Shown here: positions 3,767 through 19,989 of the stretch, piece by piece
How the letters are laid out: every line of letters starts with the position of its first letter
How positions within the stretch are numbered: the stretch's first letter is position 1
Origin: an uncultured Veillonellaceae bacterium
GTDB taxonomy: Bacteria > Bacillota > Negativicutes > UBA1444
NCBI GenBank assembly: GCA_964521625.1
Contig: CAZFSM010000018.1
Location: 10,479 to 74,478, forward strand
DNA length: 64,000 bases
Direction of reading: 5' to 3'
Notes under the pieces: generated by a model
The model's database searches: none
What the model saw: the letters and a program-made list of their open reading frames with translations, nothing else
What the model was told of the DNA's origin: nothing
Made by a program: the position numbers and the translations under genes

Positions 3767-3955
3767 ATGTTCATGGTCGCGATCGAAGAAGAAAAATGCA
3801 TAGGCTGCGCGCAATGTACGCAAGGCTGTCCTGCGCAAATTCTGGGCATGGTGGGAGCGAAAGCCGAAGTAACCGGCGATGCTTCCGAATGTATGGGATG
3901 CCAGTCCTGTGTCATGACTTGTCCTGCAGAAGCCATTACCGTCACCGAGTATTAA
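3767..3955 (+). CDS. 2x[4Fe-4S] ferredoxin
   Basis: CIGCAQCTQGCP and CMGCQSCVMTCP; GAGGTG SD. Confidence 0.93.
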   Translation: MFMVAIEEEKCIGCAQCTQGCPAQILGMVGAKAEVTGDASECMGCQSCVMTCPAEAITVTEY

Positions 3956-3991
3956 GTCCGCGAACGCTAAATTAATAGAGAAAGGCGGGTA

Positions 3992-5200
3992 ATGTTCATG
4001 GATGTAGAAAAAAAGGTAGCGGCAACACCGTTGCTGGACGAACTGGAAAAAGGCGATTGGCCCAGTTTTGTCACCGAAATTAAAAAGGCGGCAAAAACCA
4101 GCAAAATGGCGCAGGGTCTGCTCGAGCAAGTTGAGGCTTCCTACGTTGAAAAAATTGGTCACTGGAAACACGGAGGCATTGTGGGAGTCAAGGGCTACGG
4201 CGGTGGTGTCGTCGGTCGTTATTCCGATGATCCCGAGCGGTTTCCGGACGCGCGCGAATTTCACACGATGCGTGTGAACCAGGTTCCCGGTTTTTTCTAT
4301 ACCAGTGAAAAACTCCGTGCCCTTGCAGATATTTGGGATAAATACGGCAGTGGACTGTACAACATGCATGGCTCAACTGGCGATATCATCCTGCTCGGCA
4401 CAACGACCGAAAATTTACAACCCTGTTTTGATGCCCTGGGCGAGATCGATTTCGACCTCGGCGGATCCGGCGGAGCGTTGCGGACCCTCAGCTGCTGTTG
4501 CGGCCAAGCTCGCTGCGAAAAATCCTGTATTGACGCTATGGATATGATGTATGATCTTACGATGCATTATCAGAATGAAATGCATCGTCCGGCCTGGCCC
4601 TATAAGTTCAAAATCAAGATTTCCGGTTGTCCCAATGACTGCGCGGCTGCTTCGGCCCGCTCCGACATGGCGCTGATTGGTACATGGCGCGATGCGATTC
4701 AGGTAAGTCAGGAAGAAGTGAGAAAATATGTTGCCGATGGAATGAGCATGGTGCATGTCTGCCGCAAATGTCCGACAGAGGCTCTAGATTGGGATGCGAA
4801 AACAGAAACCCTGTCAGTCAAGACCGAAGACTGCGTCCGTTGCATGCATTGCATCAACGTCATGCCAAAAGCCCTGCATATCGGCAAAGAGCGCGGCATC
4901 ACCATCCAGATCGGCGGCAAGGCTCCGGTTGTCAAAGGCGCCATGATCGGCTGGATTCTGGTTCCCTTTATGAAAGCGGAAGCGCCTTACACCGAAATCA
5001 AAGATCTGGTCGAAAAAATCACCGAGTTTTGGGCCGAAAATGGCAAAAATCGCGAGCGACTGGGTGAATTGGTCGAACGTCTCAGTCTGGCCACGTTTCT
5101 CGAAGGAATCGGCCTGAAGCCGCTGCCTCAGATGGTCAGCGCCCCGCGTGCGAATCCTTATATCTTCTGGAAGGAAGAGGAGGTTGTTAAGAATGGCTAG
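3992..5200 (+). CDS. dsrA: Dissimilatory sulfite reductase alpha subunit
   Basis: TPLLDELEKGDWPSFV, HWKHGGIVGVKGYGGGVVGRY, NMHGSTGD, CGQARC...GCPNDC siroheme-FeS motif, CVRCMHCIN. Confidence 0.97.
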   Translation: MFMDVEKKVAATPLLDELEKGDWPSFVTEIKKAAKTSKMAQGLLEQVEASYVEKIGHWKHGGIVGVKGYGGGVVGRYSDDPERFPDAREFHTMRVNQVPGFFYTSEKLRALADIWDKYGSGLYNMHGSTGDIILLGTTTENLQPCFDALGEIDFDLGGSGGALRTLSCCCGQARCEKSCIDAMDMMYDLTMHYQNEMHRPAWPYKFKIKISGCPNDCAAASARSDMALIGTWRDAIQVSQEEVRKYVADGMSMVHVCRKCPTEALDWDAKTETLSVKTEDCVRCMHCINVMPKALHIGKERGITIQIGGKAPVVKGAMIGWILVPFMKAEAPYTEIKDLVEKITEFWAENGKNRERLGELVERLSLATFLEGIGLKPLPQMVSAPRANPYIFWKEEEVVKNG

Positions 5201-6254
5201 AACAGATTTTGGCCCACCCAATTATAAGACGATGCTGCCGCCGATCATCACGCGCAATTACGGCAAGTGGCTCTATCATGAAGTGCCGAAACCAGGCGTA
5301 TTGCGGCACGTCAGCGAATCCGGCGAAGAACTTTTTTCGGTTCGTGTTGCCTCGGCCCGTCTGGTAAGCAGTGATTTTATCCGTGATATTTCCGATATCG
5401 CGGAAAAATATTGCGACGGATTCCTCCGCTTCACAACCCGTAACAATGTGGAGTTTTTGGTTTCAGACAAAGCTAAGCTGGAACCGTTGCTGAAAGAGCT
5501 CGACGACAAAGACTATCTGGTGGGCGGGGTTGGCCTCTCAATCAGCAACATCGTGCATACCCAGGGGTGGATTCACTGTAAGAGCGCCGTGACCGACGCT
5601 TCGGGCATAACCAAAAACATCATGGAAACCATGGTGGATTATTTCACAGGCAAAAAATCCGTACCGTCCCGTTGCCGTATTGCCGTAGCCTGCTGCGTCA
5701 ACATGTGCGGCGCCTGTCACTGTTCGGACATTGCCGTGGTAGGTATCCACCGGACAATTCCCCGCATCAATCATGAGTTGGCGTCTAAGATCTGTGAAAT
5801 CCCCAATACCATCGCATCCTGCCCCACCGGCGCGATCCGACCGAATCCAAAACTAAAGAGTATCGAAATCAATCATGATAAGTGCATGATGTGCGGTAAC
5901 TGTACTGTAGTCTGCCCGGCGATCAAGATCATGGACCCGGAAAATGACGGTGTATCGATCTGGGTCGGCGGCAAAGTGTCCAACGCCCGTTCGAAACCGA
6001 TGTTTTCCCGTCTGGCAATCCCCTTCATCCCCAACAACCCGCCGTTCTGGCCGGAAGTTACCACTGCTGTGACACATCTGGTGGAAGTCTGGGCCAGCAA
6101 TGCGCGCCCGGGCGAACGGATGGGCGAATGGATCGGACGAATCGGTTGGGAACGTTTCTTCGCAATTACCGATCTGCCGTTCACCGACAAGCACCTGGAT
6201 GACTTTACCCACGCCAACACTACGTTCCGTTCTACCACCCAGTTCAAATATTAA
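5193..6254 (+). CDS. dsrB: Dissimilatory sulfite reductase beta subunit (ATG 5193 overlaps dsrA stop)
   Basis: NYGKWLYHE, RFTTRNNVEF, HTQGWIHC, ACCVNMCG, CMMCGNC, GGKVSNAR, ERMGEWIGRIGWERFF; GAGGAGG SD. Confidence 0.97.
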   Translation: MARTDFGPPNYKTMLPPIITRNYGKWLYHEVPKPGVLRHVSESGEELFSVRVASARLVSSDFIRDISDIAEKYCDGFLRFTTRNNVEFLVSDKAKLEPLLKELDDKDYLVGGVGLSISNIVHTQGWIHCKSAVTDASGITKNIMETMVDYFTGKKSVPSRCRIAVACCVNMCGACHCSDIAVVGIHRTIPRINHELASKICEIPNTIASCPTGAIRPNPKLKSIEINHDKCMMCGNCTVVCPAIKIMDPENDGVSIWVGGKVSNARSKPMFSRLAIPFIPNNPPFWPEVTTAVTHLVEVWASNARPGERMGEWIGRIGWERFFAITDLPFTDKHLDDFTHANTTFRSTTQFKY

Positions 6255-6298
6255 TTCCCCGCGCAATGCGCTGAGGATAAACGAGAGGAGATATGTGT

Positions 6299-6616
6299 AT
6301 GTCATTCGTCGAAATCAAAGGACAACAAATCGAATTGGATGAAGACGGCTTCATCGTAGAGCCGGATCTGTGGAGCACGGAAATTGCTGAATATTTTGCA
6401 AAGGAGGAAGAAGTAGAGGAGTTAACCGAACAGCACTGGAAGATCATCAATTATCTAAAGGACTATTTCAAACAGTTCGGTATTGCGCCGATGGTCCGTA
6501 AGGTCTGCAAAGACAACAGCGTGACAATGCAAGAGCTGTATGCCTTGTTTCCGACCGGCCCGGCTAAGGGCGCCTGTAAAATCGCCGGACTGCCCAAACC
6601 AACAGGGTGCGTGTAA
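6299..6616 (+). CDS. dsrC: DsrC sulfur relay protein
   Basis: LDEDGFI, LTEQHWKII, LFPTGPAKGACKIAGLPKPTGCV with both C-terminal cysteines. Confidence 0.97.
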   Translation: MSFVEIKGQQIELDEDGFIVEPDLWSTEIAEYFAKEEEVEELTEQHWKIINYLKDYFKQFGIAPMVRKVCKDNSVTMQELYALFPTGPAKGACKIAGLPKPTGCV

Positions 6617-6694
6617 ACGCACCCTGGAGTTCCTGTGCTGCGCGTTCCCCATCCAATTGAGACGACTCATCAATTTGGAAAGAGGTGAAACAAT

Positions 6695-8182
6695 TTGAGT
6701 ACAGAAAGCAATCCCTCAGTATACCAAAGCAAGGCTATGTTTAAAAGCGAAGACTGGTGGGCAGTATGGCTCGGCCTGTTTATCTTCGCACTCGGTCTAG
6801 GGCCTATTTATGGCATGGATACTTTAGGTTGGCTGGCCAAACATAGTGTTTGGATTGACATCTCAAAAGCTGTCTCTCCGGCGACAAAAAACTATGCCGG
6901 GTTAGGATTCTTTGGCTCTGCCATAGCAACCTGGTTGTTCATGTTGGCCGTTACCACCTTTGGCGCAACAATCATGGGTTCCAAACCGGCTCGTTTTGCC
7001 GGCGGATTTTCCATTATCTACTGGTTGACCTTCATCTGTATCGTGCTCGGCAACAACGCCTATATCGGCGCCACGCCGAACCAACTGAAAGGTTTCAAGA
7101 TTGCCTGGGCACTCAGCTTGGGTGAAATGGGACTGATCTTTGCGATGCTTGTCGGCTTGTACATCGGCAATTTCATGCCTGGGCTGACCAAATATCTGCA
7201 TGACTCTGCCCGGCCGGAATGGTTTATTAAAACCGGCATCGTTATCCTTGGCATGGCGATCGGCATCAAAACCGTCAGCGCCATGGCGCTGGCCGGTACC
7301 GTCATCGTTCGCGGCGTATGTGCCGTGGTCGAGGCGTATCTGATCTACTGGCCGGTTACTTATTTCATCGCCCGCAAATACTTCAAATTCACGCCGGAAT
7401 GGGCCGCACCCCTGGCATCCGGCATCTCGATCTGCGGCGTGTCCGCCGCCATTGCGACCGGCGCCGCTATTCGCGCCCGTCCCCATATTCCGGTCATTCT
7501 CTCCGCCGTTATTATTGTTTTCGTGGCGGTCGAACTACTATTTCTGCCGTTTTTGGCAGCAGGGTTCCTAGTAGGTGAGCCGATGGTCGCCGGGGCCTGG
7601 ATGGGCCTGGCGGTTAAGAGTGACGGTGGGGCCGTCGCCAGCGGCGCGATCACCGATGCTCTCATCCGCTCCAAAGCCGAAGCCACCCTTGGCATCAAGT
7701 ATCAGGAAGGCTGGATGCTGATGGCGGCTACCACGACCAAGCTGTTCATCGATCTGTTCATTGGCGTTTGGGCATTCATTTTGGCAATCATCTGGAGCAT
7801 GTTCCGTCTCGACAGCTGCAACCCAGATAAAACTGCCGGAGAAGCCCGCAAGGTGTCGCCGATGGAAATTTGGAACCGTTTCCCAAAATTCGTGCTTGGC
7901 TTTATGTTCACATTTGCTGTTTTGCTAGTCATGGGCCTGAATAATCCCAAGATTGTCAAACTGGCTGACGAAGGAGCTGGCCAGGCAAATATCCTGCGCA
8001 GCATGTTCTTTGCGCTCTGCTTCTTCTCGATCGGCATCGTGACCAACGTCCGCAAACTTTGGGCGGCGGGCATGAGTCGAATCGTAGGTGTCTACGCGGT
8101 ATGTCTGTTTGGGTTCATCCTGTGGGTCGGGCTGGGGATTTCCTGGCTGTTCTATCACGGCGTTTATCCGCCCCTGATGTAA
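6695..8182 (+). CDS. YeiH/putative sulfate exporter family membrane protein
   Basis: Many TM segments; EDWWAVWLG, PEWFIKTGIVILG, GISICGVSAAIA, RFPKFVLGF; TTG start after GAGGTG. Confidence 0.85.
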   Translation: MSTESNPSVYQSKAMFKSEDWWAVWLGLFIFALGLGPIYGMDTLGWLAKHSVWIDISKAVSPATKNYAGLGFFGSAIATWLFMLAVTTFGATIMGSKPARFAGGFSIIYWLTFICIVLGNNAYIGATPNQLKGFKIAWALSLGEMGLIFAMLVGLYIGNFMPGLTKYLHDSARPEWFIKTGIVILGMAIGIKTVSAMALAGTVIVRGVCAVVEAYLIYWPVTYFIARKYFKFTPEWAAPLASGISICGVSAAIATGAAIRARPHIPVILSAVIIVFVAVELLFLPFLAAGFLVGEPMVAGAWMGLAVKSDGGAVASGAITDALIRSKAEATLGIKYQEGWMLMAATTTKLFIDLFIGVWAFILAIIWSMFRLDSCNPDKTAGEARKVSPMEIWNRFPKFVLGFMFTFAVLLVMGLNNPKIVKLADEGAGQANILRSMFFALCFFSIGIVTNVRKLWAAGMSRIVGVYAVCLFGFILWVGLGISWLFYHGVYPPLM

Positions 8183-8222
8183 TCCAGCAGCAATATTTGC
8201 ATAAAGAAGGAGGCGAGAAGGC

Positions 8223-8393
8223 ATGGCAGAAAACAAATGCTTAGTGGATCCTTCCGTAGAAGATGCGCAAAATGAGATGGAAGAACAATGGTTTCCTCTG
8301 CAGCCGATTGAGATTAAGATGCTTAGTATCACATTCGGTCTCGGGATGGTTCTGTTGGTAGTGTTCTTCTTCGTATTCGGAGTCCACATCTAA
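8223..8393 (+). CDS. 56-aa single-TM microprotein (absent from ORF track)
   Basis: AAGGAGG SD 9 nt before ATG; MAENKCLVDPSVEDAQNEMEEQWFPLQPIEIKMLSITFGLGMVLLVVFFFVFGVHI; acidic N-terminus plus one hydrophobic helix. Confidence 0.8.
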   Translation: MAENKCLVDPSVEDAQNEMEEQWFPLQPIEIKMLSITFGLGMVLLVVFFFVFGVHI

Positions 8394-8417
8394 ACGGTCA
8401 AAAGTTACTGACACCGG

Positions 8418-8453
8418 GGGGAAAAAAATCGTCGCAAGGTGGTTTTCTTCCCC
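8418..8453. terminator. Imperfect hairpin between convergent genes
   Basis: GGGGAAAAAAATC...GGTTTTCTTCCCC; weak U tails. Confidence 0.5.
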
Positions 8454-8468
8454 TGATTTGTAAAGCAA

Positions 8469-9467
8469 TCAAGAACAATTTTGGGAGAACAACTTGGGAC
8501 AGTCAATGCAAAGATCGTCGGGCTGATTGTTGCCAAATGAAGCGCGAAACTGCAGGTACTCATTACTCCACCAAGTTTTATCCAATCCTTCACGGCCCAA
8601 ACTGCCAAAACACCTGCGTTTGCGCCCGGTTGCCAAATCAGGCAGATTGGCGAATACACAGGGGTGAATTCCCCCATCGGCGGCAATGATCAACGCGCGG
8701 TCGACCCGTTCGCTACAGGTCGCGAAATGTTCCTGTGAAGTCGTAGTTTCGGCATCAAAAACCAATAGGGTTCCTGCTGCCGCCAGTCGGGTTTTAATTT
8801 CTGTCATTTTTTCTGTAACAGCAGCCCATTCTGGGCTATTCCGGACAATCACCTGACCTGCCAGCACCGGATGTGGGACATGGTCGAGCGTGCTGACCAC
8901 GATTTCATTCACCGCCAGGCCATCTAACAATTCGGGCAGATCGTCGATTTCGTCCACGCCGCCCTGCAGCAACATATAGGCAATATGAATGGCCGGGCCG
9001 TTTTTTCGGTTATAACCCTTGGCCGCCGCCAATGTCCGGATTCCTAGCAGTACCGCCGCCAGCGGTGCCCCCTGGCGAAACCTGTCGTGCGAAGCGCCGG
9101 CGCCGGTCAGGGAAAAGGCGACCAGATCAATTTCGGAATGAATGATTTTTTCAGCATTGGACTCATTTAGTAGAATACCGTTGGTTGTTGTACCGCAGCG
9201 GCAGCCATGCGCTTTAACCAGTTCGATCAGGTCGAAGAATTGCGGGTTGAGTAAAGGTTCGCCCCAGCCCTGTAGGTGCACGTACGGTACACTGGGCAGG
9301 TGGCGCAATAGTGGGCGCAGTGTCGCTGGTGTCATGTGGATATTGTTCCAACGTTGACCGGCTGTAGTGCGCGGGCAATAAGCGCAAAGGGCATTGCAGA
9401 ACGTGCTGACCTCCAGCTGGATGTGGTCCAGTTCCGGGTAGGGAGCAAACCAATGTTTCCACTGCAT
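8469..9467 (-). CDS. Radical SAM protein with C-terminal SPASM/twitch-like domain
   Basis: CNALCAYC, GWGEPLL, TTNG; C-terminal C...GGIHPC...CIDC; GGGAGG SD 8 nt before ATG 9467. Confidence 0.9.
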   Translation of the reverse strand: MQWKHWFAPYPELDHIQLEVSTFCNALCAYCPRTTAGQRWNNIHMTPATLRPLLRHLPSVPYVHLQGWGEPLLNPQFFDLIELVKAHGCRCGTTTNGILLNESNAEKIIHSEIDLVAFSLTGAGASHDRFRQGAPLAAVLLGIRTLAAAKGYNRKNGPAIHIAYMLLQGGVDEIDDLPELLDGLAVNEIVVSTLDHVPHPVLAGQVIVRNSPEWAAVTEKMTEIKTRLAAAGTLLVFDAETTTSQEHFATCSERVDRALIIAADGGIHPCVFANLPDLATGRKRRCFGSLGREGLDKTWWSNEYLQFRASFGNNQPDDLCIDCPKLFSQNCS

Positions 9468-9546
9468 CAAAGAGGCCTCCCTTATGTTAGCTGTTCCAGT
9501 TTATTGTAACGTATTCTGTCCATTCGCGGGGAAAGAGGAGTGAACC

Positions 9547-10497
9547 ATGAACGCAATCGGTTGGTTTGTCGGCGGTCCTTATTTATACATTTGCCTGCTG
9601 CTGTTTGTTGGGATTACGGCGTGGAAGGTTTATGGCTATGCCACCATGCCCCGCCATTTGCGCTGGGATCTTTACCCACTGCCGCACCGGGTCGGCGGCT
9701 CCAAGTATCAGAAAGTCGATTTTTACAAGCTGAAGCAAAAAACAAGCCTGCTTGATGAATTTAGCTATATGTTCATGGAAATCCTTTTCATCCGCAAGGC
9801 ATTTATTCATAATCCCAAAGTCTGGGCAGGTTCATTTCCCATGCACATGGGGCTTTATCTTTCGATACTGTGGCTGTTTTTGCTCGGGATTGGCATCGTT
9901 GCAGATAAAATGTTTCATTTGCCGGGGGTGCCGGTAAATGGCTGGTTCTGGATTACAGCGTTGTATGTTGTGACAGTCCTGGTTGGCAGCCTGGCCTTGG
10001 TGGCCGGCTTGACCGGCGCCTGTTGGCTGATGGTTCTGCGGCTTACCGACGAGGGGCTGCGCGATATGTCCGACATTCCGGCCTATTTTAATCTCAGCCT
10101 GCTCATCGGCATGTTCGGCTCAGGTCTGGCTGCCTGGTTCTTTGCTGATCCCGACTTTGTATTGCTCAGGGCGCAGCTCGGGTCATTGTTTGTCTTTTCA
10201 CCGACAGTACCCGCGCATTGGCTGATTACACTGGAAATCTTTTTCATGGGGCTATTCCTGGCCTATCTGCCGTTTAGCCGCATGAGTCATTATGCCGCAA
10301 AGTACTTTTTCTACCATGATATCATGTGGGACGATGAGCCGATGAAGGCCGGCAGTTCGCTGGAAAAAAACGTCGTTCACTCGCTTGGCGGCAAACTGTC
10401 CTGGTCTGCCTCCCATATCAAACAGGACCAGTCCTGGCTGGCGCAGGTATCGCCCGAAGAAGTCAAGGCCGGGAAGGAAGGGGCTGAAAAACAATGA
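9547..10497 (+). CDS. NarI/DsrM-like membrane cytochrome b (second copy, DsrM')
   Basis: About five TM helices; HLRWDLYPLPH, FPMHMG, YLPFSRMSH; coupled to a DsrK-like gene. Confidence 0.82.
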   Translation: MNAIGWFVGGPYLYICLLLFVGITAWKVYGYATMPRHLRWDLYPLPHRVGGSKYQKVDFYKLKQKTSLLDEFSYMFMEILFIRKAFIHNPKVWAGSFPMHMGLYLSILWLFLLGIGIVADKMFHLPGVPVNGWFWITALYVVTVLVGSLALVAGLTGACWLMVLRLTDEGLRDMSDIPAYFNLSLLIGMFGSGLAAWFFADPDFVLLRAQLGSLFVFSPTVPAHWLITLEIFFMGLFLAYLPFSRMSHYAAKYFFYHDIMWDDEPMKAGSSLEKNVVHSLGGKLSWSASHIKQDQSWLAQVSPEEVKAGKEGAEKQ

Positions 10498-12098: not shown

Positions 12099-12567
12099 GC
12101 AGCGGGGGGCTTTGTTAAAAGCCTGGTACGACACAACGATGAAAAGTTATTTTCCGGCAACGGACGAAGCATTCCGGCGCAACACCGGTTTTGCCAATCC
12201 GGTCGGGCAGGCCTTTCAGGAATCGATGGCGACGATACTGGACGGTCTGGTGGTAGGAAACTCTGTGTCGGATTATACCGCACCACTGGACCGCATCGTG
12301 CGGGTTCTGGCAGTACAGGGCTTGCCGGCCGGCGTCGCAATCCGGTTTTTGTCGGTGCTGCGCAATCTGCTGGAAAAAAACACGGAAATCGCGGTGGGCG
12401 AAAAAATGCAATGGCTGGCGCGGCTGGATGAACTAGCCGAATTGTCGATCGAAATTTGGTGTGAATGCCGCGAAACCCTTTCCCAACTTCGAATTAGTGA
12501 ACTCAGAAATCGCATCCAACAACTCGAAGCCGGTTCTACGCCCAGACAAAGAGGGGGGAACGACTGA
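12088..12567 (+). CDS. dsrT: DsrT (RsbRD N-terminal-domain protein)
   Basis: FANPVG motif, LDRIVRVLAVQ, CRETLSQLRISEL; lies immediately before dsrK. Confidence 0.85.
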   Translation: MNSKQRGALLKAWYDTTMKSYFPATDEAFRRNTGFANPVGQAFQESMATILDGLVVGNSVSDYTAPLDRIVRVLAVQGLPAGVAIRFLSVLRNLLEKNTEIAVGEKMQWLARLDELAELSIEIWCECRETLSQLRISELRNRIQQLEAGSTPRQRGGND

Positions 12568-14189
12568 TGGCCAAAATAGCAAAACCAGCGGAGTTGCTCA
12601 AAAACACCGGCTATGACAGCATGCCGGCTACCCATTGGATGGATACGCCGGTCGATTTTCGTCCGGGCACCTGGTTGTTTCCCGGTAAAGCGGAAAGCCT
12701 GATCGCTGTCGATCTGCCCAATCCGCGCAAGTGGTCGCCGGAGGACGCCGACTGGAAGCTGCCGCCAAACTGGAAAGAGATCATTCTGGACGGCATGCGG
12801 GAACGGCTGCAGCGGTATCGCTCATTCCGCGTATTCATGGATACCTGCGTGCGCTGCGGCGCCTGCGCTGATAAATGCCATTTTTACCTGGGGTCCGGCG
12901 ATCCGCGCAATATGCCGGTACTCAGGGCCGAACTGCTCCGCTCCGTCTATCTGTATTACTTTACGGCTACCGGTAAGACGCTGGGCCGTTTTGCCGGCGC
13001 CCGCGAGCTGACCGAAGACGTGATCAAGGAATGGTTCTATTATTTCCACCAGTGCACCGAATGTCGCCGCTGCTCCGTTTTCTGCCCTTACGGTATCGAT
13101 ACGGCGGAGATTACGATGATCGGGCGGGAACTCTTGAACCTGATCGGCTGCAATATTGACTGGATCGTTACACCAGTCGCCAACTGCTACATGAAGGGAA
13201 ACCATCTGGGCATCCAGCCGCATGGACTGGTCGACTCGATGGACTTTCTGGTTGAAAACATCCAGGATATCACCGGCGTCAAAATTGAGCCGACCTTCAA
13301 CCGTAAAGGGGCGGAAATCCTTTATGTGCCACCGTCCGGCGACATTTTTGCCGATCCCGGCACTTACTCGCTGATGGGGCAGTTGATGCTGTTCCATGAG
13401 ACCGGTATCGACTATACCCTTAGCACCTATGCTTCCGAGGGCGGCAACTTCGGCAGCTTTACATCGATGGAGATGGCCAAGCGCCTGAATGCCAAAATTT
13501 ACGCCGAGGCCCGGCGTCTAGGCGTGAAGTGGATTCTGGGCGGTGAATGCGGCCACATGTGGCGGGTGATTCACCAGTTCATGGATACGATGAACGGACC
13601 CGGCGATTTCCTGGAGACGCCGGTCAATCCCTTGACAGGGACCCGGTTTGAACATGCCAAGGCTACCGGTATGATTCATGTAACCGAATTCACTGCCGAC
13701 CTGATTCACGAAGGAAAAATCAAACTGGATCCGTCACGCAACGATAATGTGAAGGTCACCTTCCACGATTCCTGCAACCCGTCGAGGGGCATGGGCCTGT
13801 TGGAAGAACCTCGCTATATCCTGAACAAGGTCTGCAATAATTTCTTTGAGATGCCGGAAGAAACGATCCGCGAAAAGACCTTCTGCTGCGGCGGCGGCAG
13901 CGGGCTGGGCGCTGACGAAAACATGGAGATGCGGATGCGCGGCGGCTTGCCGCGGGCCAATGCCGTGCGCTATGTGCATGAAAAATTTGGCGTCAACATG
14001 CTGTCCTGTGTTTGTGCGATTGACCGCGCTACATTGCCCCCCCTGATGCATTATTGGGTACCCAAGGTCGCGGTTTGCGGCGTTCACGAACTGGTTGGCA
14101 ATGCGCTGATTATGAAGGGCGAGATGAAACGGACGCAGAACCTTCGATTTGAAGAACTGCCTGCGGCAAAGGAGGATGGCAATGAATAA
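12567..14189 (+). CDS. dsrK: DsrK catalytic subunit of DsrMKJOP
   Basis: CVRCGACADKC, CTECRRCSVFCPYGIDTAE, GECGHMWR, FHDSCN, CCGGGSGL, CVCAIDR. Confidence 0.94.
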   Translation: MAKIAKPAELLKNTGYDSMPATHWMDTPVDFRPGTWLFPGKAESLIAVDLPNPRKWSPEDADWKLPPNWKEIILDGMRERLQRYRSFRVFMDTCVRCGACADKCHFYLGSGDPRNMPVLRAELLRSVYLYYFTATGKTLGRFAGARELTEDVIKEWFYYFHQCTECRRCSVFCPYGIDTAEITMIGRELLNLIGCNIDWIVTPVANCYMKGNHLGIQPHGLVDSMDFLVENIQDITGVKIEPTFNRKGAEILYVPPSGDIFADPGTYSLMGQLMLFHETGIDYTLSTYASEGGNFGSFTSMEMAKRLNAKIYAEARRLGVKWILGGECGHMWRVIHQFMDTMNGPGDFLETPVNPLTGTRFEHAKATGMIHVTEFTADLIHEGKIKLDPSRNDNVKVTFHDSCNPSRGMGLLEEPRYILNKVCNNFFEMPEETIREKTFCCGGGSGLGADENMEMRMRGGLPRANAVRYVHEKFGVNMLSCVCAIDRATLPPLMHYWVPKVAVCGVHELVGNALIMKGEMKRTQNLRFEELPAAKEDGNE

Positions 14190-14580
14190 GAACCGCCTGG
14201 TAGCGCTGGGATTGATCCTGTTTGTGTTGCTGTTCACCTTTCCGGTGCTGATGAATTTAGGCAAGTCTGCTGCGAAAACACAGCCGCCGTCGCTGTTGCA
14301 GGATGAGAAGGCGATGCAGGAGCTGGCCGACAAACTTGGGGTGAAGAATATCGATGAGTTTCGCGAACGGCACAAGCAGGTTCTGGCCGAATGGAAAGAC
14401 TCGGTGGTGCGGGACGGCAAACGGATCTACGTCACCAAGGACGGGCGCGAAATCCCGATCAGTCTGCAGAACCTGGCCAGTCAGCCACAATACTGCAATG
14501 CCTGCCACGATTATGTCGGTATTGAAAAACCAAACTGCTGGACCTGCCATGTCGAGCCGAAAGGAGGCGACGGTAAATGA
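14182..14580 (+). CDS. dsrJ: DsrJ c-type cytochrome (only two CXXCH motifs)
   Basis: N-terminal TM anchor, WKDSVVRDGKR, SLQN, CNACH and CWTCH; GGAGG SD; sits between dsrK and dsrO. Confidence 0.88.
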   Translation: MNKNRLVALGLILFVLLFTFPVLMNLGKSAAKTQPPSLLQDEKAMQELADKLGVKNIDEFRERHKQVLAEWKDSVVRDGKRIYVTKDGREIPISLQNLASQPQYCNACHDYVGIEKPNCWTCHVEPKGGDGK

Positions 14581-15341
14581 AAAAGCCACTCAACATAAGC
14601 CGTCGGACTCTATTAAAAGCAACTGGCGCCGCAGCCATTGGCCTCATACCGGCCGGTACGCTATTGGTGAGAGCGGCCGGAAAACCGCATCCTAAGGCAC
14701 TGCAGGCCAAGAGTTGGGCGATGGTCATCAATGCGAAACTTTGTCCGCCCGGTTGCCGCATCTGCAGCGAGGCCTGTCACAAGGCCCATAACGTGCCGAA
14801 CATGCCGGACGCCAAACAGGATGTGAAATGGATCTGGCAGGAGTCATACAACTCGGCGTTTCCTTACGAAGCACATTCTTATCCGGATGACGCCAATGCC
14901 AAACGGCCTTATCCAGTATTGTGCAATCATTGTGAAAATCCTTCCTGTGTCCGGGTATGCCCGACCCAGGCGACCTTCAAGCGGCCTGACGGCGTGGTGA
15001 TGATGGATTACCACCGTTGTATCGGTTGCCGTTTCTGTATGGCGGCCTGCCCTTATGGCGCCCGCAGTTTCAACTTCAAGGACCCGCGGCCGCATATTCC
15101 GACGCTAAACCAGGCTTATCCCACCCGAACTCCCGGCGTGGTCGAGAAATGCAATTTCTGCGATGAACGACTGGCGGTCGGGCAGATGCCTGTCTGTATG
15201 GAGGCTTGTCCGGCCAAGGCGATCCTGTTCGGCGACCTGGGCGACCCTGCTTCGACAGTTCGGCAGGCTCTGGCGTCGAACGTGACTTTACAGCGGAAGA
15301 CCAAACTCGGCACCCGGCCGAAGGTCTTCTACATCGTTTGA
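14577..15341 (+). CDS. dsrO: DsrO Tat-exported Fe-S protein
   Basis: SRRTLLK Tat motif; CRICSEAC, CNHCENPSCVRVCP, CIGCRFCMAACPY, KCNFC...CMEACP. Confidence 0.93.
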   Translation: MKKPLNISRRTLLKATGAAAIGLIPAGTLLVRAAGKPHPKALQAKSWAMVINAKLCPPGCRICSEACHKAHNVPNMPDAKQDVKWIWQESYNSAFPYEAHSYPDDANAKRPYPVLCNHCENPSCVRVCPTQATFKRPDGVVMMDYHRCIGCRFCMAACPYGARSFNFKDPRPHIPTLNQAYPTRTPGVVEKCNFCDERLAVGQMPVCMEACPAKAILFGDLGDPASTVRQALASNVTLQRKTKLGTRPKVFYIV

Positions 15342-15357
15342 AGGGAGGAGAACAGCA

Positions 15358-16527
15358 ATGCTTGAACACGCATGGAATGAAACCGGACCCCGGTTCAAGG
15401 CCTGGTTGGCGGCGCTACTGCTCCTGATCGGCGTCGGCGGTTTCTGTTACTCCATCCAGCTCGGAACCGGCCTCGGTGTCACCGGCATGAGCAGGGATGT
15501 ATCCTGGGGGCTATATATAGGCCAATTCACCTTCTTTGTCGGGGTTGCCGCCTCGGCCGTCATGGTCGTTTTGCCCTATTATCTGCATGATGTGAAAGTG
15601 TTCGGTCGCATTACCGTCGTCGGTGAATTTCTGGCGGTTACCGCAGTCATCATGTGCATATTGTTCATCCTGGTTGACCTGGGGATGCCGTCCCGCCTGC
15701 TTAATATCATGCTGTATCCGTCGCCGGGTTCAGTCCTGTTTTGGGACATGGTCGTGCTGAATGGTTATTTTTTCCTCAACCTGTTGACCGGCTGGAAAGT
15801 GCTCGAAGCCGAGTATACCGGAATCAAAGCGCCTGACTGGGTGAAACCGCTCATCTACATCGCGATTCCCTGGGCGTTCAGCATTCACACGGTTACAGCC
15901 TTCATCTATTCGGGGATACCAGGCCGCGACTTCTGGCTGACTGCCCTGACCGCGCCCAAATTCCTCGCTTCGGCGTTTGCCACCGGCCCGGCGCTCCTGA
16001 TCCTGATCAGTCTAGCCCTGCGGCGCTTCACCGGTTTTGATGCCGGACAGGAGGCGATCCGTCGACTGTCAATCATCGTCACCTATGCGATGTCGATTAC
16101 CGTGTTCATGATCATGGCCGAGTTCTTCACCGCCTTTTACAGTCAGGTGCCCAGCCATATGTATGCACTGAAATACTTTTTTGTCGGACTCTATGGCGGC
16201 AATTCGTTTGTCGTGATTTCCTGGATTTTCGCCGGACTTTGCCTGCTGGCGCTGATCCTGCTGCTCAACCCCGCGACCCGTCAGAATGAAAAATGGCTGA
16301 CCATCGCCTGTGCCTCGACATTTATCGCACTGGCGATTGAAAAGGGTATATCTTTCACGGTGGGGGGGTTCATCACCAATCCGTTCGGCCGGGTAACCGA
16401 ATACTGGCCGACAGCAATCGAACTGGGGATTGTCCTTGGCATCTGGGCGCTCGGCGCTTTTCTGCTGAGCCTGTTCTACAGCCTGTTCGTTACCGTCAAA
16501 CGTCGCTCCGAAAGGGGGCTTGCCTGA
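15358..16527 (+). CDS. dsrP: DsrP, NrfD/PsrC-family membrane subunit
   Basis: TGMSRDVSWGLYIGQFTFFVGVAASA, SIHTVTAF, PKFLASAF; about ten TM helices. Confidence 0.93.
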   Translation: MLEHAWNETGPRFKAWLAALLLLIGVGGFCYSIQLGTGLGVTGMSRDVSWGLYIGQFTFFVGVAASAVMVVLPYYLHDVKVFGRITVVGEFLAVTAVIMCILFILVDLGMPSRLLNIMLYPSPGSVLFWDMVVLNGYFFLNLLTGWKVLEAEYTGIKAPDWVKPLIYIAIPWAFSIHTVTAFIYSGIPGRDFWLTALTAPKFLASAFATGPALLILISLALRRFTGFDAGQEAIRRLSIIVTYAMSITVFMIMAEFFTAFYSQVPSHMYALKYFFVGLYGGNSFVVISWIFAGLCLLALILLLNPATRQNEKWLTIACASTFIALAIEKGISFTVGGFITNPFGRVTEYWPTAIELGIVLGIWALGAFLLSLFYSLFVTVKRRSERGLA

Positions 16528-17519
16528 TGCAAATGCTGATTGCGTTCGCCGTGGTCGCGACCATTGCTGCCGCCGGTTATATCGGAGGAGCCATGCCGGG
16601 GCTACAGTTTATCTTCGGCGTTGTTCTGCCACTACTAGCCATCATTGTGTTTTTGGTCGGTTTCGTGCGAAAAATCTGGAACTGGGCCCAAACGCCGGTA
16701 CCTTTCTGTATCGCTACCACTGTTGGTCAGCAAAAATCCCTGCCCTGGATTACCCAGGACAAGGTAGGCAATCCATCGGATACGTCCGGTGTTGTCCGTC
16801 GGATGGCCGGCGAGATTTTCCTGTTTCGCTCGCTGTTCCGCAATGTGAAGGCGGAAATCGGCCCGGACGGCTGGATTGGCTACCAGTTCGAAAAATGGCT
16901 CTGGCTATTTGCCGTTTTGTTTCATTGGTCATTCCTGTTCGTCGTGATCCGCCATCTGCGATTTTTCTTCGTACCGACGCCGGCACTGGTCATGGGGCTG
17001 GAGCATATAGATGGCTTTCTGTTACTCGACCTGCAGCCGCTGTTCTTGTCAGGCATCTTGCTGCTGTTTGGCGTGAGTGCCCTGTACCTGCGCCGGATGG
17101 TGATTCCTCAAGTGCGGTACATCTCTCATGGCATTGATTTTGTACCGCTGTTTCTGATTGGCGGGATTGCCCTTAGCGGGATCCTGCTGCGTTATGTTTG
17201 GCCGACCGACGTTGTGGCCGTAAAGTCGATGACGATGGGCTGGGTTACATTGAATCCTGTATTGCCGGCCAACATCAGCCCACTGTTTTTCGCCCACCTT
17301 ACGCTGGTTTCGGCACTGTTGGCCTGGTTCCCCTTCAGCAAGCTGATGCACATGGGCGGCGTTTTTCTCAGCCCCACCCGCAACCAACGGGCCAATTCAC
17401 GTGAAGTTCGCCATATCAACCCCTGGAACTACCCGGTCCATACCCATACCTATGCAGAGTACGAAGATGAATTCCGTGATAAAATGAAAGGGTGCGGGCT
17501 ACCGGTCGACAAACAGTAA
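16527..17519 (+). CDS. dsrM: DsrM diheme cytochrome b
   Basis: FCIATTVGQQKSLPW, LFHWSFLFVVIRHLR, FAHL...FPFSKLMHMGGVFLSPTRN, RHINPWN; four His ligands. Confidence 0.94.
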   Translation: MQMLIAFAVVATIAAAGYIGGAMPGLQFIFGVVLPLLAIIVFLVGFVRKIWNWAQTPVPFCIATTVGQQKSLPWITQDKVGNPSDTSGVVRRMAGEIFLFRSLFRNVKAEIGPDGWIGYQFEKWLWLFAVLFHWSFLFVVIRHLRFFFVPTPALVMGLEHIDGFLLLDLQPLFLSGILLLFGVSALYLRRMVIPQVRYISHGIDFVPLFLIGGIALSGILLRYVWPTDVVAVKSMTMGWVTLNPVLPANISPLFFAHLTLVSALLAWFPFSKLMHMGGVFLSPTRNQRANSREVRHINPWNYPVHTHTYAEYEDEFRDKMKGCGLPVDKQ

Positions 17520-17549
17520 GTTTGGACAGCCAGGCAAAGCAGTTTGCAT

Positions 17550-17595
17550 GCCGGCGTGCTGTCGGTCGGTGAAATCCGACACGGCAGTCGCCGGC
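17550..17595 (+). other. GC-rich intergenic stem-loop without U tail
   Basis: GCCGGCG-TGCTGT-cg-GTCGG-tgaaat-CCGAC-ACGGCA-gt-CGCCGGC. Confidence 0.55.
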
Positions 17596-17613
17596 TGTTC
17601 GCGTTAAATCGGT

Positions 17614-18603
17614 TTGAGCGGGAAAGAGAGGCGATTTATTGTTATGCTGGCTGCACTGCTTACTATTGGATTGATTCTGGCAGCTGCTCTATTTGGTGGC
17701 ATAGTGCCGCAGGGGCTGCCAGCGGAAGCTTATCTGGACCGCTTTGGCAAATCGTTCGGTCGGATTTTTTTAACGCTGGGTCTGGATGATATTTACCGCA
17801 CCAAGGGCTTTTTGCTATTGGGGCTGCTGTTATTCGCCCAGTTGGCGGTTTGTACCGGCAAACGGATTTCACTGCTGCGCGGCGGCGTTAAAACCTGGCT
17901 GATTGGTTCTGTACTGATGCATGTCGGACTACTGGTTTTTCTGGTTTCCACCGGGATCAGTCTTTGGTGGGGGCACAACATGATGGTGGAGATTCCCGAA
18001 GGGAAAACCATGTCGCTGACCCAGCAGGGAGTTCCCTTTGATATCCGCCTGGACCGATTTACAATCGACTACTATCCGGACAGCCATGCCGTACGGCAGT
18101 ACCGCAGCGACGTGGTACTGACCCGGGCAGGCCAGGAACTGAGACGCGGCAGTCTGGAAGTGAATGAACCGCTCAGCCATGAAGGGGCGAAAATTTTTCA
18201 GATGAGTTATGGCTGGTTGGTAGAAGGGTCGGTGCGACAATTGCCGGACGGCAAAGCAGAACCGTTCTCGCTTGCCAATGGGGGTTGGCTCGATTCGCTT
18301 GGACCGGACAAAGACCGGCTGCGGGCCGTGATTGTAGCAGACCCGGCTAAACAGTCCGCCCGCCCGCCTGAAGTTGTTTTTGTTTTGCTGAAGGAATCGG
18401 GGGCGCGGCAGACGGCGGTTGTTACGCAGGGTGGCTCGATTAAGGACGCGAAAGTGGAAATTCGTTTTGAGCGGCTGCGGCGATATTCTGGCCTGCAGGT
18501 GAAGCAAGATCCCGGTGTAAGCGGCATTTTCGGCGGACTGACGCTGGCGCTGCTCGGGTTATTGCTCCGCTATGCGCCGCTGGGAGGAAACAAAACAGTA
18601 TGA
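17614..18603 (+). CDS. ResB-like cytochrome c biogenesis protein (system II); start uncertain
   Basis: LGLDDIYRT, LMHVGLL, RQYRSDV, LEVNEPL, FQMSYG, YSGLQVKQDPGV. Confidence 0.87.
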   Translation: MSGKERRFIVMLAALLTIGLILAAALFGGIVPQGLPAEAYLDRFGKSFGRIFLTLGLDDIYRTKGFLLLGLLLFAQLAVCTGKRISLLRGGVKTWLIGSVLMHVGLLVFLVSTGISLWWGHNMMVEIPEGKTMSLTQQGVPFDIRLDRFTIDYYPDSHAVRQYRSDVVLTRAGQELRRGSLEVNEPLSHEGAKIFQMSYGWLVEGSVRQLPDGKAEPFSLANGGWLDSLGPDKDRLRAVIVADPAKQSARPPEVVFVLLKESGARQTAVVTQGGSIKDAKVEIRFERLRRYSGLQVKQDPGVSGIFGGLTLALLGLLLRYAPLGGNKTV

Positions 18604-19433
18604 TTCAATGGGAAACGATGTTGTTGCTATTCGTATTTGTGGTCTATGCCGTCGCCACGATCAGCTTTTCACTCCGCTACTGGCTGCGCAACAACCGGCT
18701 GGTTGCAGCGGGAATGTTGATGCTTGGCGGGGCCTTTTCCCTGCACAGCGGGCTGCTGTTGGTGCGCGGGATTGCCGCCGGACGGCTGCCATTCAGCAAT
18801 CTGTATGAATTCACCCTGGTTTTTGCCTGGATCACGACGCTATTGTTTCTTTGCTGCGCGGTCCGGTTTCGCCTGTTAGCGGCAGCGCCGCTGGCAATGT
18901 CGCTGACGACCCTGCTGGTTGGCATTGCCGCAATGATGCCGCGGGATATCCGTCCGCTAATGCCGGCTTTGCGCAGTGGCTGGCTGCAGTCGCATGTGGC
19001 TGCGGGAGTTCTGGCATACGGGGCGCTGGCTGTTTCCGCCGTGCTTGCTGTTGTCCTGTTGACCCGGGCGGAGCAGCAGGAAGCAACCGACTCTGCTGAC
19101 TGGCTGGAAAAATATTGGCGGATGCCATCGGTGGCGGAGTTGGAACGCTACGTTCATGGACTGATTCTGTTCGGATTTTTCTTTCTGTCGGTGCTGCTGG
19201 TGACAGGAGCCGTGTGGGCCGAGGAAACATGGGGGCGCTGGTGGGGCTGGGACCCCAAAGAAATCTGGGCGCTGATCACCTGGCTGATTTATCTCGTCTA
19301 TTTGCATGGCCGCAGCCGGTTAGGCTGGACCGGACAGGCAACCGCCTGGTTCTCGGCATTCGGTTTTATTGCGGTGATGTTCACTTTGTTTGGTGTCACC
19401 TATCTGTTACCGGGGTTGCACAGCTATAAATAA
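18600..19433 (+). CDS. ccsA: Cytochrome c biogenesis protein CcsA/ResC
   Basis: PFSNLYE, PALRSGWLQSH, WWD motif GAVWAEETWGRWWGWDPKEIW, YLH, GLHSY. Confidence 0.94.
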   Translation: MIQWETMLLLFVFVVYAVATISFSLRYWLRNNRLVAAGMLMLGGAFSLHSGLLLVRGIAAGRLPFSNLYEFTLVFAWITTLLFLCCAVRFRLLAAAPLAMSLTTLLVGIAAMMPRDIRPLMPALRSGWLQSHVAAGVLAYGALAVSAVLAVVLLTRAEQQEATDSADWLEKYWRMPSVAELERYVHGLILFGFFFLSVLLVTGAVWAEETWGRWWGWDPKEIWALITWLIYLVYLHGRSRLGWTGQATAWFSAFGFIAVMFTLFGVTYLLPGLHSYK

Positions 19434-19531: not shown

Positions 19532-19837
19532 TTATCGACCGAAGCCGCGAGTCTTTTGGAAGCAGTCCCGGCAATAAACCGGACGGTCGCTACGCGGGGC
19601 AAACGGAACCTGAGTTTCACAGCCGCACTCGGCGCAGACTGCAGGGTGCATTTGACGCTCGCCGCCTTGGCTATTTCCGCCGCCAAAGTTACCGCGTTGT
19701 TTACGAGCGGAGCGGCAGGTGGGGCAACGGCCCGGCTCGTTTTGGAATCCTTTTTCAGCATAGAACTCTTGTTCACGCGCGGTGAATTCGAAGTCGACGC
19801 CGCAATCTCTACATTTCAGAACTTTGTCTTCCATCAT
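19532..19837 (-). CDS. Zinc-ribbon protein with CxxC-x17-CxxC domain
   Basis: MMEDKVLKCRDCG..F.FTAREQEFYAEKGF..P.RCPTCR, then CAECG...VPFAP...VYCRDCF; AGGAGGA SD. Confidence 0.9.
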   Translation of the reverse strand: MMEDKVLKCRDCGVDFEFTAREQEFYAEKGFQNEPGRCPTCRSARKQRGNFGGGNSQGGERQMHPAVCAECGCETQVPFAPRSDRPVYCRDCFQKTRGFGR

Positions 19838-19989
19838 GAATAATCCTCCTCTGTCTCCCTGCACAGCGGACTCGGACGGCGTGGCTTTTCGACCTCTCCG
19901 GCAGGCAAACGAGAAGAGGGGAATGGGCACGGGTCACGGGAACGAATATTGGGCAGGTACGCACGAAAGTATAGTAGTGCGCAATAATA

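Follow-up and report, generated by a model that had tools for sequence, protein, structure and literature searches.

The presence of dsr genes, which encode a dissimilatory sulfite reductase and its electron-transfer partners, raises the question of whether their bearer respires sulfate, respires sulfite or merely disposes of it, and of where the sulfite comes from. This question is put by a stretch of 64,000 nucleotides (hereafter, the window) from the metagenome-assembled genome (MAG) of an uncultured Veillonellaceae bacterium, in which a compact dsr cluster encodes the reductase DsrAB, the sulfur-carrying protein DsrC, a canonical membrane complex DsrKJOPM and a second, divergent module DsrM2K2. 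The window corresponds to positions 10479-74478 of contig C18, in a genome of 3.70 Mb distributed over 70 contigs and rated 100 for completeness. The host is a diderm Firmicute, a Sporomusaceae-type MAG incapable of sulfate activation, and the locus probably encodes the terminal reductase of a sulfite-respiring pathway in which sulfite would mainly derive from organosulfonates. Starting from the gene content, the absences, the conservation, the co-occurrence and the motif states that were recorded, we infer the substrates, the path and direction of the electrons, and how the two modules share the work.

With respect to the electron acceptor, the most informative data are the genes that the genome lacks. 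Throughout the genome, sat had no match, the best match to aprA reached 90 bits for a cut-off of 641.75, DsrH was missing, and nothing above the cut-offs was found for Xsc and AsrC. The lack of sat, aprA and DsrH, which the sequence-only reading had noted within the window, thus holds genome-wide, and dsrN is absent from the cluster. A single CbiA-family gene occurs in the genome (C2:7243-8688), with 36-38% identity to the DsrN proteins of relatives, which are 41-53% identical to one another. Since neither aprA nor sat occurs in a genome rated 100% complete, the system appears to reduce sulfite and not sulfate, as had been supposed earlier. Beyond this genome, in a sample of 401 genomes and 110 genera of the class Negativicutes, dsrA (E 1e-60 or better) occurs in 27 genomes from 15 genera, and none of the 26 dsrA-bearing genomes other than the host possesses an aprA exceeding the cut-off. 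Homologues of MenA over the cut-off are present in the host.

The second line of evidence concerns the origin of the sulfite. A glycyl-radical enzyme of the HpsG type (NF048011, 1542.6 bits; cut-off 1000) is encoded together with an activase of the HpsH type (NF048010, 473.2 bits; cut-off 430) on contig C5. According to passages of a report on Bilophila (PMC8397734), HpsG is the sulfite-lyase of 2,3-dihydroxypropane-1-sulfonate (DHPS), the sulfite it liberates is respired via DsrAB and DsrC, and it shares 60.6% identity with the isethionate lyase IslA. In the GTDB family of the host, sampled by 13 species genomes, dsrA occurs in six, and an HpsG over the cut-off in five of these six as compared to none of the seven dsrA-negative genomes, the exception being 87% complete; owing to the non-independence of the relatives, this co-occurrence is a count and not a statistical test. 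In two of the relatives (G010 and G014), a string made of a sigma-54 regulator, a TRAP binding protein, a fused DctQM, hpsG, hpsH and an amidohydrolase directly adjoins lysR-fdx-dsrABC, in divergent orientation. The idea of sulfonates as substrates, raised earlier as a matter for growth tests, has accordingly been strengthened by a lyase and activase present in the genome, associated with dsr in the family, and contiguous to dsr in two of its members. In the host, hpsGH are accompanied by a sigma-54 regulator and, upstream, by a transketolase split in two halves, while downstream lie PduT/EutQ-like genes (the PduT-like one below its cut-off), an RnfC-like gene and an amidohydrolase gene. These surroundings hint at sulfosugar-derived substrates and at a microcompartment. 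Another set on contig C8 (41033-46681, minus strand), comprising a PhsA/PsrA-like molybdoenzyme (379 bits, below the cut-off), an iron-sulfur subunit, an NrfD-like subunit and a 324-aa double-rhodanese protein, may function in the reduction of thiosulfate or polysulfide and could supply sulfite from thiosulfate. A literature search for sulfite-lyases in Negativicutes gave no account of them, a single general review among the papers listed mentioning sulfite-lyase at all, and no description of a dsrAB system from Sporomusaceae was found in the literature searched.

Genes were called from an open reading frame (ORF) listing combined with profile searches (Pfam, and NCBIfam with its curated cut-offs), and the order from fdx to ccsA announced by the sequence-only reading for positions 3767-19433 was recovered with every named gene at its place and on its strand (Table 1). 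The curated cut-offs are exceeded by DsrA, DsrB, DsrC, DsrK, DsrO, DsrP, DsrM and CcsB. From dsrM2 to dsrM the intergenic spacing varies between -14 and +16 nt, a packing so tight that the two MK modules are almost certainly co-transcribed as one operon.

Table 1. Genes of the dsr cluster and its upstream neighbours, with positions in the window and profile scores
Gene	Position	Strand	Match or remark
hemL	1-1155	+	558.7 bits; 5' end cut by the window
cysteine desulfurase	1275-2423	-	TIGR01977 455.9 bits (cut-off 377)
LysR regulator, YeiE-like / 'selenium-metabolism LysR'-like	2659-3558	+	NF040786 245 bits (cut-off 250); YeiE 202 bits
fdx, 62-aa 2x[4Fe-4S] ferredoxin	3767-3955	+	
dsrA	3992-5200	+	559.4 bits (cut-off 392.85)
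dsrB	about 5193-6254	+	476.4 bits (cut-off 341.5)
dsrC	6293-6616	+	over cut-off; both C-terminal Cys
permease, PF03601/YeiH family, 495 aa	6695-8182	+	PF03601 69.6 bits
small ORF, 56 aa, one helix	8223-8393	+	
radical-SAM/SPASM gene	8469-9470	-	TIGR04317 140.5 bits (cut-off 380); AhbD 45 bits
dsrM2 (divergent dsrM)	9547-10497	+	38.4 bits (cut-off 300)
dsrK2 (divergent dsrK)	10494-12098	+	309.3 bits (cut-off 400)
dsrT-like gene	12088-12567	+	RsbRD_N 23.1 bits (cut-off 24.3), weak
dsrK	12567-14189	+	726.8 bits, over cut-off
dsrJ	14149-14580	+	94.1 bits (cut-off 100)
dsrO	14577-15341	+	307.6 bits, over cut-off
dsrP	15358-16527	+	418.9 bits, over cut-off
dsrM	16527-17519	+	462.4 bits, over cut-off
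resB-like gene, short	17614-18603	+	Pfam ResB 152.9 bits; 329 aa; no NCBIfam match
ccsA/ccsB	18600-19433	+	CcsB 226.6 bits (cut-off 187.6)

The cluster was compared to related loci obtained by a scan of species-representative genomes with DsrK2, which delivered 120 relatives; the best 80 loci were kept, and the counts out of 80 given below refer to these and cover only the DNA stretch around each of them. The closest loci come from MAGs labelled Sporomusaceae, Negativicutes or 'uncultured Veillonellaceae', and include four close relatives of the window designated L006 to L009; among the 20 sequencing runs listed, none of which is an RNA run, the nearest holders of DNA of this lineage are rock and groundwater metagenomes. 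Other loci used for comparison are those of G070, a genome from another Negativicutes family, of Desulfitispora alkaliphila DSM 22410 (L121), of a Bacillota MAG (L122) and of the Desulfosporosinus MAG SbF1 (L045).

The core of the system is built from a single dsrA, dsrB and dsrC set, dsrA being single-copy in the genome. DsrC ends with ...GACKIAGLPKPTGCV and possesses both functional cysteines, Cys95 and Cys106, a pair of C-terminal residues kept in 20 of the 21 aligned DsrC sequences. A small ferredoxin gene accompanies dsrA in 20/80 loci, the corresponding gene of Desulfosporosinus having been named fdxD (PMC6372793), and the adjacent ferredoxin is the presumed electron donor to DsrAB. The lysR homologue also adjoins dsrAB elsewhere, with 72-94% identity among the Sporomusaceae loci, 53% in G070 and 34-36% in Desulfosporosinus. 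A DsrAB tree was restricted to loci with both genes at a coverage of at least 80% (27 rows); in it, the family of the window forms its own long branch (0.37) among DsrD-bearing relatives of the reductive type. Upstream, hemL closes a tetrapyrrole/sirohaem operon, sirC-hemA-hemC-cobA/hemD-hemB-hemL, the rest of which lies just ahead of the window (C18:1-10600). A perfect palindromic hairpin with a stem of 10 bp (6603-6626) overlaps the stop codon of dsrC upstream of the permease gene, and may act as a transcript stabiliser or as an attenuator separating dsrABC from the downstream genes.

According to the mechanism proposed for this sulfite respiration, organosulfonates cleaved by the HpsG/HpsH-type lyase would be the main source of sulfite, further possible sources being thiosulfate or polysulfide, through the PhsA/PsrA-like enzyme, and external sulfite. 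DsrAB reduced by the ferredoxin would load the sulfur of sulfite onto DsrC as a trisulfide, and DsrC would be recycled at DsrK by electrons flowing from menaquinol through DsrP, DsrO, DsrJ and DsrM, by analogy to the path through DsrMKJOP derived from the cryo-electron microscopy structure of the Archaeoglobus complex (bioRxiv 10.64898/2026.08.25.746951). A second site of DsrC recycling would be DsrK2, with the DsrM2 cytochrome delivering the electrons. ResB and CcsA would attach haem to DsrJ and to NrfHA-like cytochromes, and the upstream sirohaem/haem operon would supply the cofactors.

The sequence-only reading regarded the cluster, together with haem-ligand losses, as the best candidate for an undescribed system, and noted a divergent MK pair located in front of the canonical genes. 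The pair, a membrane cytochrome b and an HdrD-like iron-sulfur protein, does occur ahead of dsrT, but it belongs to a widespread family already published as dsrM2K2 (PMC6018796, PMC6372793), so that the two-module design is in print, as gene content only. Passages of these and related sources call such dsrMK paralogs ahead of dsrAB 'not uncommon in SRM' (sulfate-reducing microorganisms; PMC6018796), and state that DsrMK is 'sometimes' found in multiple copies (PMC10861901). In the literature search devoted to it, the pair was named and no role was described. A DsrK tree of 100 rows, which excludes rows under 75% coverage as well as L074 and L085, since they duplicate L121 and L122, resolves three clades: 16 canonical sequences linked to JOP genes, 2 of the MK-only type (L026 and L124) and 82 of the K2 type. 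The K2 clade (support 100) has a stem length of 1.31 changes per column and contains both the window and L045, the MAG for which the pair was named, the K2 of the window's family standing beside two Chloroflexi sequences (support 98). To our knowledge, the role of dsrM2K2 has never been tested experimentally.

Among the best 80 of the 120 relatives, K2 loci range over Firmicutes, Deltaproteobacteria-type MAGs and Chloroflexi, and M2 adjoins K2 in 76. A second, non-K2 dsrK occurs in the same locus in 14/80, accompanied by dsrJ in 12/80. Depending on the group, the layouts differ: Desulfosporosinus displays a cysteine desulfurase gene (minus strand), then M2-K2-fdx-dsrAB...lysR, then a zinc-finger gene (minus strand), whereas Syntrophobacterales, Smithella and other delta-type MAGs display dsrAB(DN)C-M2K2-(T)MKJOP, and Chloroflexi variants occur as well. 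The dsrAB beside M2K2 in Desulfosporosinus is not a second copy, that dsrA being their only one.

Does DsrM2K2 also reduce the DsrC trisulfide? Rather unlikely, although it deserves most attention among the rivals, is the view that it does not, and that it serves another disulfide or persulfide carrier or another role with DsrAB, only DsrKJOPM recycling DsrC. K2 stands apart in its own clade, at the end of a long branch, and at the 'supernumerary' ligand position it shows an Hdr-like Cys in 82/82 rows where canonical DsrK has Asp in 16/16; in passages of the Archaeoglobus preprint, this position corresponds to Asp500 and the Asp is linked to an oxygenated sulfur intermediate (bioRxiv 10.64898/2026.08.25.746951). 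The MK-only DsrK of Gram-positives (L124, L026) nevertheless also have Cys (2/2), and the L124 locus reads fdx-dsrM-dsrK-dsrC. Both ferredoxin motifs and the cysteines of the CCG motif are kept in all 82 K2 rows, as is the Cys aligned with Cys329 of A. fulgidus DsrK, which the same preprint terms 'strictly conserved'. Gene context points in both directions, since dsrA, dsrB or dsrC occur near M2K2 in 31/80 loci while none of them lies within the stretch in 49/80, and the co-transcription of M2K2 with the canonical module speaks against plain redundancy.

The cytochrome subunit adds to the case for another role. In DsrM2, His100 and His248 are kept in 73/73 sequences, whereas the second His of helix II occurs in 8/73 (Leu110 in the window) and the first His of helix V in 34/73 (Glu230 in the window), so that M2 mostly lacks a pair which, presumably, on the ligand scheme of NarI, serves the distal, outer-face haem. 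The four-His set is complete in 20/20 canonical and MK-only DsrM, including the canonical DsrM of the window. This loss across the DsrM2 family may have gone unreported so far: passages of PMC10504309 state that DsrM histidines 'remain highly conserved', and the 2026 preprint took only genomes with one of two DsrM configurations, which excluded co-resident pairs (bioRxiv 10.64898/2026.08.25.746951). DsrM2 also lacks an insertion of about 17 residues that precedes the His-bearing helix in canonical DsrM, including that of the window. The insertion is probably the TMH3 loop which, in the preprint, blocks the quinol site of JOP-linked DsrM and is tied to the DsrJ interface.

Structure prediction argues for a DsrC-linked function. 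A DsrK2-DsrC complex was predicted from our own alignments (44 K2 rows and 21 DsrC rows), in three runs and with three controls. The runs scored 0.73, 0.63 and 0.73, a median of 0.73 as compared to 0.00 for the best control, and this mark was reached by 116/157 solved complexes and by 2/215 mismatched pairs; such a test may also be passed by a paralog of the real partner, so that the result is support and not proof. Contact agreement between runs was at least 74% and the partner pLDDT at least 82. In the model the DsrC arm 103-107, with Cys106, enters the K2 pocket, where it contacts residues 441-446 and 485-489 adjacent to the ligands of the cluster. A sequence search of the PDB gave no chain matching DsrK at E 1e-5, and recall of a solved complex is therefore unlikely. 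The model supports binding of DsrC by DsrK2, and, together with the intact CCG cysteines, leaves the two routes to reduce the DsrC trisulfide, proposed from the bare sequence, plausible.

The canonical complex is encoded in the order T-K-J-O-P-M, with dsrM last, instead of (T)-M-K-J-O-P. The order K-J-O-P-M behind dsrT also occurs in L007, L008, L009, G070, L121 and L122, while ten other loci show M-K-J-O-P. In L121 and L122 the locus reads T-KJOPM-fdx-dsrAB(D)C-...-M2K2, i.e., with the two blocks swapped as compared to the window, and in G070, contig ends suggest the succession of lysR-fdx-dsrABC and PF03601-M2K2-T-KJOPM, followed by HydABC-type hydrogenase genes. There (L126:10272-14350), dsrM is succeeded by NuoE-like, NuoF-like and HydA ([FeFe] hydrogenase) genes in place of resB/ccsA. 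The order is not new: 'DsrT-DsrK-DsrJ-DsrO-DsrP-DsrM' and 'DsrA-DsrB-DsrC' are recorded for Acetonema longum DSM 6540 in a supplementary table of 2023 (PMC10504309, Supplementary Table 1), and the same blocks, swapped, occur in the cultured Desulfitispora alkaliphila, so that the novelty claimed for it does not stand. The dsrT-like gene matches the dsrT preceding dsrMK(JOP) in relatives by position, with 23-35% identity, and the gene at the corresponding position is labelled DsrT in the same supplementary table. The canonical DsrK of the family groups with those of Desulfitispora, L122 and Desulfosporosinus in a subclade of Firmicutes (support 98), and that of the window possesses C403, C440/C441, C481, C483, D486 and C328.

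The most unusual subunit is DsrJ, which retains two CXXCH motifs. A deletion of 6 residues has removed the first CXXCH, GVK takes the place of the C[VIL][EA] that holds the conserved Cys, and neither Met of the FMxxNHM motif is left. This form occurs in 4/4 family loci (the window and L007-L009) and in 0/12 other loci; these 12 and G070 have the Cys and three haem sites, one locus with a CXXXCH. Among the 26 other dsrA-bearing Negativicutes, DsrJ was detected in five, of which four belong to the family and score about 93 bits, close to the 94.1 of the window and under the same cut-off, while G070 reaches 151.7. Such traits suit the notion, quite improbable in our eyes, that the DsrJOP branch is decaying, the loss of a DsrJ haem having cut the wire from DsrP so that DsrM2K2 or DsrMK alone works; the displacement of dsrM from dsrK would fit as well. 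The two-haem DsrJ is nevertheless a stable variant and not a wreck, as far as sequences tell, because all 15 relatives fetched out of 29 database matches, at identities from 96% down to 67%, likewise lack the Cys and have two haem sites, each with an intact CXXCH. DsrO, DsrP, DsrK and DsrM score well over their cut-offs, the K-J-O-P-M order coexists with a three-haem DsrJ in G070, Desulfitispora and L122, the canonical DsrM retains the loop insertion (blocked quinol site and DsrJ interface) and should depend on DsrJOP, and resB/ccsA are retained right behind the cluster. Passages of the preprint report that growth was unaffected by mutation of the DsrJ Cys ligand and affected by deletion of dsrJ (bioRxiv 10.64898/2026.08.25.746951), and a dispensable ligand of this kind fits a lineage that dropped the haem yet kept the protein. 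The term 'diheme' used in PMC10861901 refers to DsrM and not to DsrJ.

The cytochrome c maturation genes behind dsrM had been considered as belonging to the cluster itself. Both resB and ccsA are single-copy in the genome, and only three genomic ORFs contain at least two CXXCH motifs, namely DsrJ and an NrfH-like/NrfA-like pair on contig C5. As the sole copies, resB/ccsA must therefore also serve the NrfHA-like cytochromes, so that they are shared rather than the cluster's own. They directly follow dsrM in L007, L008 and L009, but not in G070 or Desulfitispora. Farther along the window (54272-56492, plus strand), a DsbD_2/CcdA-like membrane protein (54700-55341) is encoded, with a 143-aa ORF on one side and a Fer4_5 protein on the other; although 35 kb away from resB/ccsA, it may provide cytochrome c maturation with its thiol-reducing arm.

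Between dsrC and dsrM2 the cluster is more variable. In the window (6695-9470) this stretch consists of the PF03601 permease, the 56-aa ORF and the antisense radical-SAM/SPASM gene, while L006 (5182-8939) and L008 (4273-8033) contain another radical-SAM/SPASM gene, a 209-aa ORF, another PF03601 permease and a 93-aa ORF, all on the plus strand. The radical-SAM/SPASM proteins and the permeases each differ between the window and L006/L008 (26-28% identity), despite dsr genes that are 92-98% identical. L009 has a permease of the window type and the small ORF without the radical-SAM gene, and identities of 85% for the permease and 68% for the small ORF are kept in L009/L128. To judge from these comparisons, the stretch behaves as a replaceable cassette. 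PF03601-like genes occur in 8/80 loci, and the permease is a putative carrier of sulfite or of another sulfur anion. An assignment of the radical-SAM protein as AhbD or NirJ was ruled out, with 45-50 bits for cut-offs of at least 500.

At the level of the class, five of the 26 other dsrA-bearing Negativicutes have a canonical DsrK of about 725-741 bits, and eighteen a DsrK of about 403-418 bits near dsrA. A second DsrK-family match of 306-343 bits occurs in 21/26, within the score range of the window K2. Two DsrK-type modules thus appear to be the rule among the sampled dsr-bearing members of the class.

Several observations weigh against a sulfite respiration fed by organosulfonates. The source is a MAG with a contamination rated 1.91%. 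In this genome hpsGH are located on contig C5 (150460-161334) and not beside dsr, NF048011, labelled a 'dehydratase' by NCBIfam, may fail to tell HpsG and isethionate lyase apart, and no close ortholog of the TRAP binding protein of the relatives was found in the host (best 34-37% identity). The loss of the DsrJ haem site might break the O-J-M wire, the window DsrM2 lacks both His mapped to the distal haem, which puts the route of quinol electrons in question, and the latitude of the complex test has been pointed out above. Finally, DsrD, presented in passages of a 2023 preprint as a near-universal companion of reductive bacterial DsrAB (bioRxiv 10.1101/2023.06.27.546762), was not found anywhere in the genome by our own hidden Markov model (HMM; best E 0.38). 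The model was built from DsrD-like ORFs located behind dsrB in relatives, at 25 distinct places, one seed being a PF08679 protein (60.8 bits). It replaced a genome search with PF08679 that was uninformative, being silent in all controls and in 5 dsr-bearing genomes; Pfam misses the Desulfosporosinus-type DsrD-like ORF. The model also came out empty in the L006, L008, L009 and G070 loci.

A missing activator such as DsrD would suit sulfite detoxification or assimilation during fermentative or acetogenic growth, with no energy conserved. Detoxification was the alternative that the first reading of the sequence itself had offered, the trait is patchy (six of the 13 family genomes), and the genome also encodes an NrfA-like enzyme. 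Detoxification would be a costly use of a complete membrane complex, an additional MK module and dedicated cytochrome maturation, and the association of dsr with a sulfite-producing lyase, a transporter and a regulator is the layout of organosulfonate respiration, so that we hold this explanation for very improbable. A Dsr system running in reverse, or disproportionating, as in DsrD-less sulfur oxidisers, would share the missing DsrD and is scarcely credible in a genome with no DsrH and no aprA or sat to oxidise sulfite, and with a DsrAB branching among DsrD-bearing relatives of the reductive type.

Among the known systems, the organosulfonate respiration of Bilophila wadsworthia (PMC8397734) is among the closest parallels to the sulfite respiration preferred here, with a glycyl-radical lyase and its activase, no sulfate activation, sulfite passed to DsrAB-DsrC, and microcompartment-shell genes near the lyase (PduT-like in the host, below the cut-off). 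In contrast to B. wadsworthia, which combines HpsGH or IslAB with DsrMKJOP, the host belongs to the Negativicutes and not to the Desulfovibrionaceae, the window has an additional dsrM2K2, the K-J-O-P-M order, a two-haem DsrJ and no DsrD, and the lyase operon is physically joined to the dsr cluster in two relatives. Desulfosporosinus (PMC6372793) shares the dsrM2K2 family, the small ferredoxin (54-59% identity), a DsrMKJOP-type complex in a Firmicute, and the LysR, cysteine desulfurase and treble-clef zinc-finger neighbours. It differs by the distribution of dsrM2-dsrK2-fdxD-dsrABDN and dsrT-MKJOP-dsrC over different contigs, by its DsrD-like and DsrN-like genes, M-K-J-O-P order and three-haem DsrJ, and by its being a sulfate reducer, sat and aprBA being reported for the SbF1 MAG in passages of the same paper.

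Desulfitispora alkaliphila DSM 22410 resembles the window by dsrT-K-J-O-P-M, fdx-dsrABC and dsrM2K2 in one locus, but has the blocks swapped (T-KJOPM first), keeps DsrD and DsrN, and possesses a three-haem DsrJ with its Cys. Desulfitispora reduces sulfite and is not known to reduce sulfate. A literature search for this genus together with dsrMKJOP found nothing. In its locus (L121:6441-8177, minus strand), a fusion of a pyridine-nucleotide disulfide oxidoreductase and a rhodanese, of the CoA-disulfide/persulfide-reductase type, occurs between dsrC and dsrN and is followed by a sigma-70 family gene ahead of dsrM2K2. Acetonema longum (PMC10504309, Table S1) shares T-K-J-O-P-M and a DsrA-B-C set without DsrD; in the data examined, neither Acetonema nor Desulfitispora has resB/ccsA behind dsrM. 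The DsrMKJOP of Archaeoglobus fulgidus, described in passages of bioRxiv 10.64898/2026.08.25.746951, shares the five subunits, the Asp and the extra Cys of DsrK and the loop insertion of DsrM, but in the window DsrJ the Cys ligand and one of the haem sites are missing. The window DsrM2 resembles DsrM-1 by its lack of the insertion, and differs from the MK-only-type DsrM (L022, L026, L124), which keep the distal His pair. The building blocks are thus of known kinds, several of which this lineage has rearranged and trimmed. What is new consists of the link between lyase and dsr, the K-J-O-P-M order combined with ccs genes, the two-haem DsrJ, the lack of DsrD and of a cluster dsrN, and the apparently unnoticed His loss of DsrM2.

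A few other features of the window and genome are worth recording. Next to ccsA (19532-19930, minus strand), a 132-aa double treble-clef zinc-finger protein (PF13451 and PF23477) shares 63-68% identity with a gene that borders the dsrAB locus of Desulfosporosinus at the equivalent end, and has two paralogs in the host genome (contigs C29 and C12). At 49080-53354 (minus strand) a 1424-aa fusion combines a double BcrAD/BadFG ATPase with DUF2229, the activase type of enzymes of the 2-hydroxyacyl-CoA-dehydratase/benzoyl-CoA-reductase type. Besides HpsG, two other glycyl-radical matches were discarded, namely NrdD and a fragment of the HypD type located where a contig ends. NrdD (contig C6:146690-150205, minus strand) is a single frame of 1172 aa with a split model match, at about residues 20-271 and 756-1171, and the some 480 unmatched residues in the middle may correspond to an intein or an inserted domain.

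Beyond the sulfite respiration itself, a more daring and unlikely reading of the two modules can be formulated, namely a two-gear terminal reductase expressed from one operon, in which a DsrKJOPM re-wired without its Cys/His haem would work beside DsrM2K2 as a one-haem, all-Cys DsrC reductase. Devoid of an outer-face haem, DsrM2K2 would oxidise quinol or another donor without generating a proton-motive force, and would act as a relief valve when sulfonate-derived sulfite floods in, while the missing distal His pair would be an unnoticed trait of the whole DsrM2 family. If true, the lineage would represent a natural experiment showing that the Cys/His haem of DsrJ is dispensable.

The sulfite respiration proposed here would place an organosulfonate-type respiration in an uncultured Sporomusaceae lineage. 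As none of the 26 sampled dsr-bearing members of the class has aprA, surveys based on dsrAB should not count these organisms as sulfate reducers. The family also offers natural variants for the study of the Dsr membrane complex, namely a conserved DsrJ devoid of the Cys/His haem, a DsrAB of the reductive type that lacks its activator DsrD, and a co-transcribed DsrM2K2 whose cytochrome lacks the expected outer-haem His pair.

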